Part shown: positions 1 through 1,929 of the stretch, one piece after another
Numbering within the stretch: position 1 is the stretch's first letter
Layout: each line of letters opens with the position of its first letter
Origin: Escherichia coli
Lineage (GTDB): Bacteria; Pseudomonadota; Gammaproteobacteria; Enterobacterales; Enterobacteriaceae
Direction: 5' to 3' (one strand)
Length of the DNA stretch: 64,000 nt
Assembly: GCF_029227855.1 (NCBI RefSeq)
Contig: NZ_CP074356.1
Notes under the pieces: generated by a model
What the model was told of the DNA's origin: nothing
Seen by the model: the letters and a program-made list of their open reading frames with translations, nothing else
The model's database searches: none
Made by a program: the position numbers and the translations under genes

Positions 1-950
1 AACAACGGCACGGCGCGGACGTTATCCAGTGCGAACGCATGAACCGAAACCAGAATGCCAGAACGGACAATTAAGGTACCCAGTAGCGACAGCATCAGAG
101 TTACTATCGCCAGCAACAGCGACCAGTGGCGGAAAATCTCCCGCTGGCGTGTCAGGGACAAACTGTGCAGCAGCGCAGTGGCAGAAAGCCAGGGTAATAA
201 AGAGGCGTTTTCCACCGGATCCCAGAACCACCAGCCGCCCCAGCCCAGTTCGCAATAGGCCCACCAGGAACCGAGGATGATCCCCGCCGTTAATGCGCTC
301 CAGCCAGGTAGTGCCCAGCGCCAACAAATTCTGGCGCAGGCACCATCAAACTCGCCGCGCAGTAAACTCGCCAGCGCCACGCTCGCCGCCACCATCAAAC
401 CGCCATAGCCAAGGTAAAGCAGCGGTGGATGAAAGATAAGACCGGGATGTTGCAGCATCGGATTGAGATCGCGGCCTTCGATTGCTGGTGGAAATATCCG
501 CACGAAGGGATCGGACCACAGCACTACAAACAGTAGCAGTGCGGCGAGCATGAGAGATAAAACGGCTAGCGTCAGCGGAAATAGCGGATCGGTTTGCTGC
601 CGATAATGCCAGGCAAACAGCGCGCTCCAGGCGGAAAGCAGCAGCACCCAAAGCAGCAGCGAACCTTCATGGCCGCCCCACACCGCTGCCAGCTTGAGTT
701 CCCACGACAGCAGGCTGTAGCTATGTTGGGCGACATAAATGACCGAGAAATCGCTGATGAGAAAACAATACGTCAGTACGCCAAAGGCGAGCAACAGGAG
801 CGCGAACTGCGCCAGAATGCCGATGCAAGTGAGTCGCATCATGGCAGGCCAGCGCAACCGCACTCCCGCAAAGGCCGTCAACGGGGTCAACACGTTGACC
901 CCGAGACTTAACAACAACGCCAGAAAACCGACTTCAGGAAGGAATACGTC
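1..950 (-). CDS. nrfE: NrfE (CcmF-like cytochrome c biogenesis protein), 5-prime portion only; gene runs off the window start
   Basis: Minus-strand frame is open from the in-frame stop at 984-986 to the window start; own translation gives a CcmF/NrfE-like N-terminus (VFLPEVGFLALLLSLG ... YVAQHS ... AAVWGGHEGSLL); directly follows nrfD. Start codon not resolved. Confidence 0.8.
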
Positions 951-972
951 CAGAAACCACCTCTTTTCTGGC

Positions 973-1929
973 TTACGCCACCGTTAACTGCCCGGCGTAG
1001 AGAATGAAAAAGCGCAGCATCAACACGCCGACCAGACTGGCCCCACACGCCGCCAGCACGGCAGGAATGCCGGAACTGCGATTGACCCACGGTTTGAGCA
1101 ACATTGGCACAATCAGCCCCAGCCCGGCGACACCAAGCCAGAACCACCACGTCCAGAAACCGCCACCTAATGCCGCCACCAGCGCACGCACTTTACCGTC
1201 ATCGCCCAGCGCCAGACCGACAAAAAACGCCACCAGCAGGAAGATTTCACCCCATACCACGGGGATTTCCATACGGTGTACAAACTGCGCTTCCGTGGAA
1301 TGCGGGTTACTGCGTTGGCGTATCGCCATGGCGATCAGCGCCACCGCCGCACCGGACGAGATGCCGGAGAAGAGGAACAGCACCGGCAGGATCGGGTTAT
1401 TGAGGAACGGATACGATTTCAGCGCCGACAGCAGAAAGCCGGTATAAGCCCCCAACAACACCGCCAACACCAGCATCAATGTTTCCAGTCCGCGATGAAC
1501 GGGCGTCAGCAGGCTCAGAACCTTTTGCACGATCCCCAGCTTCGGCAACCAGCGTTGTTGCAGGGCAAGCAAATCATGTTCAAAGATTTTCGCCAGCCAC
1601 AGCACCAGCACCACCATGTAGAGCTGAAACAGCATCACCCCCATCGACATCACCGAGGTAAAACTGTAGTGGAACATCAGCTTCCAGAAGGTCCACGGTC
1701 TTGTCAGGTGGAAGACGAGGATCAACAGACCGAGGATCACCGCGCCCGGCCCGACAATCAGCGTGGTGCGCAGCAACGTACTGTCTGCACCGCCCGCCTG
1801 CGGGTAGAAGCGACGTAACAGCACGGCCAGCGTCACCAGACCGGCAGAAATACCAATCAAAAACAGGTAGATGGCAATCGGCCAGTCCCACACCAGCGAT
1901 TCAAAATGAAATGCGGAAGTCTGCGTCAT
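973..1929 (-). CDS. nrfD: NrfD, membrane subunit of formate-dependent nitrite reductase
   Basis: ORF track 318 aa, polytopic membrane protein; ATG at 1929; ATGA overlap with nrfC stop; operon position. Confidence 0.92.
   Translation of the reverse strand: MTQTSAFHFESLVWDWPIAIYLFLIGISAGLVTLAVLLRRFYPQAGGADSTLLRTTLIVGPGAVILGLLILVFHLTRPWTFWKLMFHYSFTSVMSMGVMLFQLYMVVLVLWLAKIFEHDLLALQQRWLPKLGIVQKVLSLLTPVHRGLETLMLVLAVLLGAYTGFLLSALKSYPFLNNPILPVLFLFSGISSGAAVALIAMAIRQRSNPHSTEAQFVHRMEIPVVWGEIFLLVAFFVGLALGDDGKVRALVAALGGGFWTWWFWLGVAGLGLIVPMLLKPWVNRSSGIPAVLAACGASLVGVLMLRFFILYAGQLTVA

Follow-up and report, generated by a model that had tools for sequence, protein, structure and literature searches.

The infC and pcnB genes have AUU starts, weak start codons that are discriminated by IF3, and the weak codon of infC is a demonstrated autoregulatory device. 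The nrfE gene of Escherichia coli would share with them a near-cognate, inefficient start and would likewise face discrimination by IF3; regulation through the weak codon is demonstrated for infC, whereas any such regulation of nrfE is conjectural. For hda, a CTG start was shown before it was for any other gene of E. coli; the second case is yfjD, of which the CTG start, formerly annotated at a downstream TTG (codon 9), has been confirmed by mutagenesis (EcoGene 3.0, PMC3531124). The yghF' pseudogene has been predicted as a third CTG case, and nrfE is absent from the EcoGene 2012 list of CTG starts (PMC3531124).

The DNA analysed here, referred to as the window, is a stretch of 64,000 nucleotides from E. 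coli. It carries the nrf operon on the minus strand in the order nrfA, nrfB, nrfC, nrfD and then nrfE, together with acs on the plus strand, and the 3' part of nrfE lies beyond the window start.

The nrfE locus and its public gene models

The first 1300 bases of the window match E. coli O43 RM10042 with 100% identity and occur in 5420 of the 5426 complete E. coli genomes. RefSeq lists nrfB-C-D-E-F-G on identical DNA and the nrfA to nrfD ORFs lie inside the window, so that nrfE stands in its operon context. Public annotation offers at least four models of the NrfE N-terminus, and the coding sequences and the proposed starts are as follows.

973–1929, minus strand: nrfD CDS, stop TAA at 975–973 (ORF list and RefSeq annotation of identical DNA)
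1–953, minus strand: nrfE CDS, first 317 codons (translation; NF007691; Pfam PF01578 and PF16327)
CTG 953–951, minus strand: nrfE start of PGAP/RefSeq (WP_071524619, WP_071524917 and others), 572 aa
GTG 893–891, minus strand: codon 21, curated MG1655 nrfE start (NC_000913.3, b4074), 552 aa
TTG 855–857, minus strand: codon 33, nrfE start of other gene callers, 540 aa
ATG ATG 837–842, minus strand: codons 38–39, nrfE start of other gene callers, 535-aa model in GenBank

The CDS starts on CTG 953–951 in all four of the PGAP-annotated records inspected, and the M-initiated 572-aa sequence of K-12 NrfE occurs on at least 1000 contigs; the 552-aa form is also widely deposited. The CTG start is annotated by RefSeq for essentially every E. 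coli genome. It is thus an ordinary feature and not a new one, since the automatic annotation of NCBI has it already. The curated K-12 reference keeps GTG 893, which is a counter-point to the CTG start.

NrfE is a member of the CcmF/NrfE haem lyase family

The translated protein matches the NCBIfam model of NrfE, NF007691, with 1164 bits against a cutoff of 394, and model positions 1–573 align to residues 2–572. TIGR00353 scores 826 against a cutoff of 569, TIGR03145 scores 600, under its cutoff of 927, with model position 2 aligned to residue 5, and Pfam PF01578 and PF16327 also match. The AlphaFold2 model of NrfE (pLDDT 84, pTM 0.88) aligns by Foldseek with CcmF of T. thermophilus (PDB 6ZMQ) with E = 1e-21 and a TM score of 0.78, suggesting that the two proteins have the same fold. 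Since the phmmer alignment to 6ZMQ begins only at residue 46, the first transmembrane (TM) helix was compared by means of AlphaFold2 and Foldseek instead. The W238–N249 block, His-95, His-175, His-263, His-305 and His-427 are invariant in an alignment of 70 sequences, and members of the family share the WWD block and the invariant histidines. By its curated models, fold and motifs, NrfE is a member of the CcmF/NrfE haem lyase family.

The same N-terminal PE.G motif opens the first TM helix in CcmF and NrfE. Of the CcmF-like relatives retrieved, nearly all have an ATG start placed two codons ahead of the proline (MIPE.G), whereas NrfE of Enterobacterales starts mostly four to five codons before it, fewer in a few loci, and usually with one of the weak codons TTG, GTG or CTG.

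A CTG codon behind a strong Shine-Dalgarno sequence

The sequence-only reading of this DNA had placed the nrfE frame on the minus strand, open from a stop at 986–984, and had located the nrfD stop at 975–973. Both placements are correct: the frame reads TAA (986–984) RWRKPEKRWF L DVFLPEVGFLALLLSLGVNVLTPLTAFAGVRLRWPAMMRLT, and the nrfD stop is TAA. That reading also held that neither ATG nor GTG precedes a pair of ATG codons at 843–838. This holds for ATG and fails for GTG, which occurs in frame at 893–891 and 863–861, and the pair itself lies at 842–837, one base away. The in-frame TTGs at 917–915, 914–912, 890–888, 881–879 and 857–855 were overlooked as well, and one of the overlooked codons, GTG 893, is the K-12 reference start. 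The more important statement, that the CcmF-like N-terminus precedes every canonical start, agrees with our analysis, in which every canonical codon falls within the conserved helix or downstream of it. Translation of the frame gave no near-cognate codon further upstream at a usable distance.

951–953, minus strand: CTG, proposed CUG initiation codon of nrfE (PGAP, conservation, aligned outgroup codons)
957–963, minus strand: Shine-Dalgarno sequence GAGGTGG (GAGG core 963–960; 6-nt spacer TGGTTT 959–954)

The Shine-Dalgarno (SD) sequence is predicted to form a 9-bp duplex with the 3' end of 16S rRNA (963–955) with an energy of −12.8 kcal/mol, which belongs to the top 0.4% of the 20-nt windows across the 64 kb. 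An SD sequence this strong precedes just 15 of the 2821 CTG triplets in the window, and within the operon it is exceeded only by that of nrfD. The GAGG stands 6 nt before the CTG, within the 5–9 nt applied to CUG-start genes. The corresponding energies for the rival codons are −7.1 kcal/mol for GTG 893, −7.3 kcal/mol for TTG 857 and −2.9 kcal/mol for ATG 842.

This arrangement resembles that of hda in MG1655, which reads GAGG-5nt-CTG, the nrfE spacer being 6 nt, and it is nearly that of yfjD in MG1655, TAA-8nt-AAGGAG-6nt-CTG, with an upstream stop about 20 nt before the start. The SD sequences of hda (−8.9 kcal/mol) and yfjD (−8.2 kcal/mol) are weaker than that of nrfE. The yfjD product is an inner-membrane protein, as is NrfE, and both genes were first annotated at a downstream canonical codon. 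The CTG start of hda is experimentally established and present in the K-12 reference, whereas that of nrfE is annotated by PGAP only; the yfjD start is verified, whereas that of nrfE is predicted, with a probable 20-codon mis-annotation persisting in NC_000913.3.

Conservation of the start region

The start region is almost invariant within E. coli. Each possible 28-nt megablast seed of a 38-nt query centred on the CTG includes 962–945, and so every matched genome has an exact copy of the SD core, the spacer, the CTG and the two codons that follow. This 18-nt block (AGGTGGTTTCTGGACGTA) is exact in 5413 of the 5426 complete genomes, and queries in which TTG, GTG or ATG replaced the CTG gave no match among the 5426, which validates the seed logic. 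A sequencing or reading error that hides an ATG or GTG, which the sequence-only reading had envisaged, is contradicted by the exact block and by the absence of matches to the canonical-codon versions. Nearby variants are intergenic (965 A/C and 971 C/T) or synonymous (codon 13, TTG/CTG).

Beyond E. coli, CTG occupies codon 1 in all members of a set of 14 sequences from Escherichia, Citrobacter, Salmonella and Enterobacter, which comprises the window, E. coli, E. albertii, nine Citrobacter, S. arizonae and one Enterobacter. At the aligned codon, Providencia, Pectobacterium, Serratia marcescens and Citrobacter R56 have TTG and Atlantibacter has GTG, so that orthologues of nrfE carry canonical starts at the homologous codon; ATG (Entomohabitans, Edwardsiella) or GTG (Pluralibacter) is found one to three codons downstream of it. 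Nearly all other Enterobacterales loci have GGTGA or GAGG 3–4 nt before the start in a near-constant register, the homologous element being absent from Citrobacter sp. R56 and S. arizonae. In most Citrobacter loci and the Enterobacter locus, a TGA in the nrfE frame stands two codons ahead of the CTG, being part of the SD sequence GGTGA, and therefore an earlier start is impossible in those loci.

A homologue search with the first 120 residues of NrfE gave fragments for the most part, the Salmonella models with MHNLDIFLPEAGF being informative. A further in-frame TTG stands three codons ahead of the CTG in Salmonella, where it overlaps the nrfD stop and is the start that gene callers use (MHNLDIFLPEAGF). 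Since this upstream TTG exists, Salmonella may be independent of the CTG.

In E. coli, 19 nt separate the CTG from the nrfD stop; the spacing narrows to 8 nt in most Citrobacter loci and is 1 nt in S. arizonae. Such short gaps, together with the overlap of the alternative TTG of S. arizonae with the nrfD stop and the lack of a promoter-like site or a special RNA structure at the junction, would fit termination-reinitiation from nrfD, rather than de novo 30S binding, as the main route to the CTG. However, the conserved, very strong and well-spaced SD sequence is enough for independent initiation, and coupled and de novo initiation are not separated by sequence alone. Coupling as the main route is therefore a tentative possibility, judged somewhat below even, and it would complement CUG initiation. 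Reinitiation from nrfD, which the sequence-only reading had also raised, would itself still require the CTG. An internal promoter or a leaderless transcript was also considered and rejected, since no promoter-like site was found within 800–1500, and so was a special RNA structure at the nrfD–nrfE junction (z = −1.0, not significant).

Coding evidence for the first transmembrane helix

927–938, minus strand: CCT GAA GTC GGT, codons 6–9, family-invariant motif P-E-V-G (70-sequence alignment; P6, E7 and G9 invariant)
855–944, minus strand: predicted first TM helix, codons 4–33 (AlphaFold2 model)

Codons 2–20 have a pN of about 0.05 and a pS of 0.13–0.40 in the 14 sequences with CTG, and this pN is the lowest among the first 100 codons. 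The variable columns in codons 2–20 number 7, 1 and 12 at codon positions 1, 2 and 3, respectively (position 2 versus position 3, binomial p = 0.0017), and the residue varies at 5 of 19 positions there versus 13 of 17 in codons 21–37. These patterns suggest that codons 2–20 evolve as coding sequence. Pro-6, Glu-7, Gly-9 and Leu-13 are invariant in the 70-sequence alignment, of which the members are 40–95% identical to the first sequence. The AlphaFold2 model, with pLDDT values of 81, 97 and 95 for the first three 10-residue blocks, has a 30-residue helix at residues 4–33; 13 residues of this helix would be left by a start at GTG 893 and none by a start at ATG 842. As in CUG-class genes, conserved N-terminal coding sequence lies upstream of every canonical start in a frame that is bounded closely upstream.

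In the K-12 model, NrfE starts at GTG 893–891 as a 552-aa protein (MLTPLTAF...) and the upstream 20 codons are an untranslated leader. This start is the one annotated in NC_000913.3, it is a canonical codon with a weak SD-like GGGG 5 nt upstream, and loss of the first TM helix might spare the remaining topology, with the RLRW loop staying cytoplasmic. However, 11.6% of random windows have an SD energy at least as favourable as its −7.1 kcal/mol, and the proposed leader, codons 2–20, is the most conserved part of the N-terminus, its variation falling almost entirely on third positions and its Pro-6, Glu-7, Gly-9 and Leu-13 being family-invariant. The predicted helix of residues 4–33 would be trimmed to 13 residues, Citrobacter On2M has GTA and Enterobacter has CTG at the codon itself (codon 21, GTG in the window), and both PGAP and NF007691 disagree with this start. 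We regard the K-12 model as improbable; GTG 893–891 is probably an internal Val codon.

The same conservation bears on a start at the ATG pair 842–837 (MMRLT), which would leave NrfE devoid of its first helix, one of the options raised by the sequence-only reading. Purifying selection acts on the 37 codons upstream, which contain the invariant family residues P6, E7, G9 and L13 (70 family members), and relatives begin 2–5 codons ahead of P in PE.G. Although these are the first in-frame ATGs, are used in the 535-aa GenBank model, and include at codon 39 an ATG that is present in 13 of the 14 sequences with CTG, the ATG at codon 38 is found in Escherichia only, and neither codon has an SD sequence (−2.9 and −2.7 kcal/mol). 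A start at MMRLT is highly improbable. The TTG at codon 33 is likewise confined to Escherichia within the 14 sequences. A shorter NrfE arising additionally from an internal start would be a further counter-point to the CTG.

An out-of-frame ORF overlaps both the SD sequence and the CTG.

934–960, minus strand: out-of-frame 8-codon ORF, GTG GTT TCT GGA CGT ATT CCT TCC TGA (MVSGRIPS, then stop)

It opens with a canonical GTG (960–958) 7 nt ahead of the CTG and closes with a TGA inside nrfE codons 6–7, and a similar ORF occurs in Citrobacter and Providencia. Initiation at this GTG, followed by a +1 frameshift near TCC TGA (939–934) into the nrfE frame, would give a peptide reading MVSGRIPSEVGF. 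However, GTG 960 lies inside the SD sequence and has no SD sequence of its own; UCC-UGA is not slippery, because tRNA-Ser cannot re-pair on CCU; and no stimulatory SD sequence stands 3 nt upstream. Moreover, the canonical starts of the outgroups lie in the nrfE frame at the position of the CTG, third-position variation tracks the nrfE frame from codon 2 on, and the invariant L-P-E context would be missing from the product. The probability of this route is close to negligible, and the ORF is judged to be a by-product of which the peptide is not conserved. Programmed +1 frameshifting of the prfB type was rejected, as there is no re-pairing at UCC UGA and no upstream SD sequence.

Because of its strong and well-spaced SD sequence, its conservation, the coding signature behind it and its annotation in databases, CTG 953–951 is likely to be the codon at which nrfE initiates, giving a protein of 572 aa. 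Initiation at a non-canonical codon of the CTG, TTG or ATT class had been the main inference of the sequence-only reading. Its support comes from the strong, correctly spaced SD sequence of CTG 953–951, the TTG and GTG starts that other Enterobacterales have at the homologous position, the RefSeq annotation and the coding signature seen from codon 2 to codon 20. This inference was very probably right, and it is not new.

Because the nrf operon is switched on only under anaerobic conditions with nitrite or nitrate, standard datasets probably show no expression of it. A literature search on nrfE and NrfEFG, together with the Ribo-RET preprint, a 2025 review of NrfA and the N-terminomics supplements of TRAINSPOTTER, yielded no experimental NrfE N-terminus, translation-initiation-site peak or mutagenesis.

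Proposed mechanism and role of the weak codon

These observations lead to a model in which the strong SD sequence (GAGGTGG, predicted 9-bp duplex, GAGG 6 nt upstream) would position the 30S subunit on nrfE, and initiator fMet-tRNA would decode the near-cognate CUG at 953–951. Ribosomes finishing nrfD 19 nt upstream might contribute. The product would be a 572-residue NrfE (MDVFLPEVGF...) with the complete first TM helix of the CcmF/NrfE fold. The combination of a weak codon with a strong SD sequence, and possibly with handover from nrfD, would keep NrfE scarce compared with what the rest of the operon encodes. CUG initiates at about 1–2% of the AUG level in E. coli reporters (10.1101/063800), which would account for such a low level of NrfE. 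Low expression may be the reason why the CUG persists, and a weak codon would suit a catalytic maturation factor that is encoded behind abundant structural genes.

A further proposal is that selection keeps the CUG as an IF3-sensitive translational throttle which, combined with the unusually strong SD sequence, holds NrfE far below NrfA–D. We consider this throttle doubtful. If true, it would explain why the CTG is fixed in all 5413 of the 5413 E. coli genomes with the exact block and why it survived the Escherichia–Citrobacter–Salmonella–Enterobacter radiation, and nrfE would rank third among the CUG-start genes of E. coli that can be tested by experiment, and first among those that serve the maturation of respiratory enzymes. 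A single C-to-T transition in the nrfE CTG would yield UUG, which is about ten-fold stronger. The invariance of the CTG was dropped as a statistical argument for selection, and by itself it does not prove that the codon is a start either, since the CTG of Leu codon 11 is equally invariant in the 14 sequences.

Implications for NrfE and for weak starts in E. coli

The K-12 reference b4074 (552 aa), and anything built on it, is probably 20 residues short at the N-terminus of NrfE, and the missing residues make up about two thirds of the first TM helix. If the CTG start is true, constructs designed from the 552-, 540- or 535-aa models would make truncated NrfE, which is of consequence for studies of how haem is attached to the CXXCK site of NrfA. 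The nrfE gene would also be a convenient native case for studying combinations of a weak start with a strong SD sequence and discrimination by IF3. The residual value of the CTG start thus lies in a likely 20-codon error of the K-12 model and in a good candidate for the third verified CUG start of E. coli; if true, nrfE would stand beside hda and yfjD as a third, strongly conserved natural CUG start.

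Length classes of NrfE

Full-length enterobacterial NrfE proteins fall into two classes by length (retrieved loci L004-L017 versus L011 and L018-L028). In Escherichia, Citrobacter, Salmonella and Enterobacter the protein is 572-575 aa long. In Citrobacter sp. R56, Atlantibacter, Providencia and Pectobacterium it mostly reaches about 619-626 aa, an exception being the 550-aa NrfE of a Providencia locus (L023). The family model NF007691 covers NrfE of the E. coli type from end to end, and TIGR03145 gives 600 bits on the same type, below its cutoff of 927. Every CTG start identified in this analysis lies in an nrfE gene of the short type.

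A 116-aa public entry (P0038), named as a partial NrfD/PsrC family protein of Pseudomonas aeruginosa and derived from a 496-nt contig, is chimeric, with an N-terminal part from E. coli NrfE (MDVFLPEVGF...) and a C-terminal part of NrfD sequence (GGGFWTWWFWLGVAGLGLIVPMLL). This record is probably a misassembly or a contamination.

Junctions and alternative start codons

The nrfD–nrfE junction of the Salmonella type reads TTG CAT AAT CTG (S. arizonae locus L014, 1480-1510; proteins P0044, P0046 and P0047), placing a canonical in-frame TTG, which overlaps the nrfD stop, 3 codons 5' of the conserved CTG (TTGCATAA). This upstream TTG is the start picked by gene callers for NrfE of the Salmonella type (MHNLDIFLPEAGF).

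The ypjD–yfjD junction of E. coli MG1655 (locus L087, 13752-13777; TAAacCCAGAAAAGgagtttcccCTG), where the CTG start of yfjD has been verified, closely resembles the nrfE junction at 975-951 of the window (TAAgCCAGAAAAGaggtggtttCTG). The annotation assigns the upstream neighbour of yfjD, ypjD, to a cytochrome c assembly protein family; beside this likeness between the yfjD and nrfE junctions, that is probably a coincidence.

Elsewhere on the minus strand, the mechanical ORF of nrfA starts at TTG 4674 (region 4674-4641), and the signal-peptide-like sequence begins at ATG 4641, which is probably the real start. Shine-Dalgarno (SD) scores are weak at both candidates (-0.3 kcal/mol for TTG 4674 and -4.0 kcal/mol for ATG 4641).

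Overlapping ORF and possible sequence constraint at the initiation region

One additional reading frame runs across the SD sequence and the CTG of nrfE:

960-934, minus strand: 8-codon out-of-frame ORF, GTG...TGA, encoding MVSGRIPS and a stop

Its counterpart in Citrobacter encodes MISGRSPS and a stop, and Providencia also has a counterpart. This ORF appears to arise incidentally from the GGTG of the SD sequence and the conserved CCT GAA (P-E) codons.

Codons 5-11 of nrfE (941-921), CTT CCT GAA GxC GGT TTT CTG, are near-invariant in DNA sequence across the CTG clade, the 14 compared sequences with CTG at codon 1, with one GGT-to-GGG change in S. arizonae. The pS of nrfE is 0.13-0.40 in codons 2-20, lower than the value of about 0.6 downstream. 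There may be extra constraint on the nrfE initiation region at the nucleotide level.
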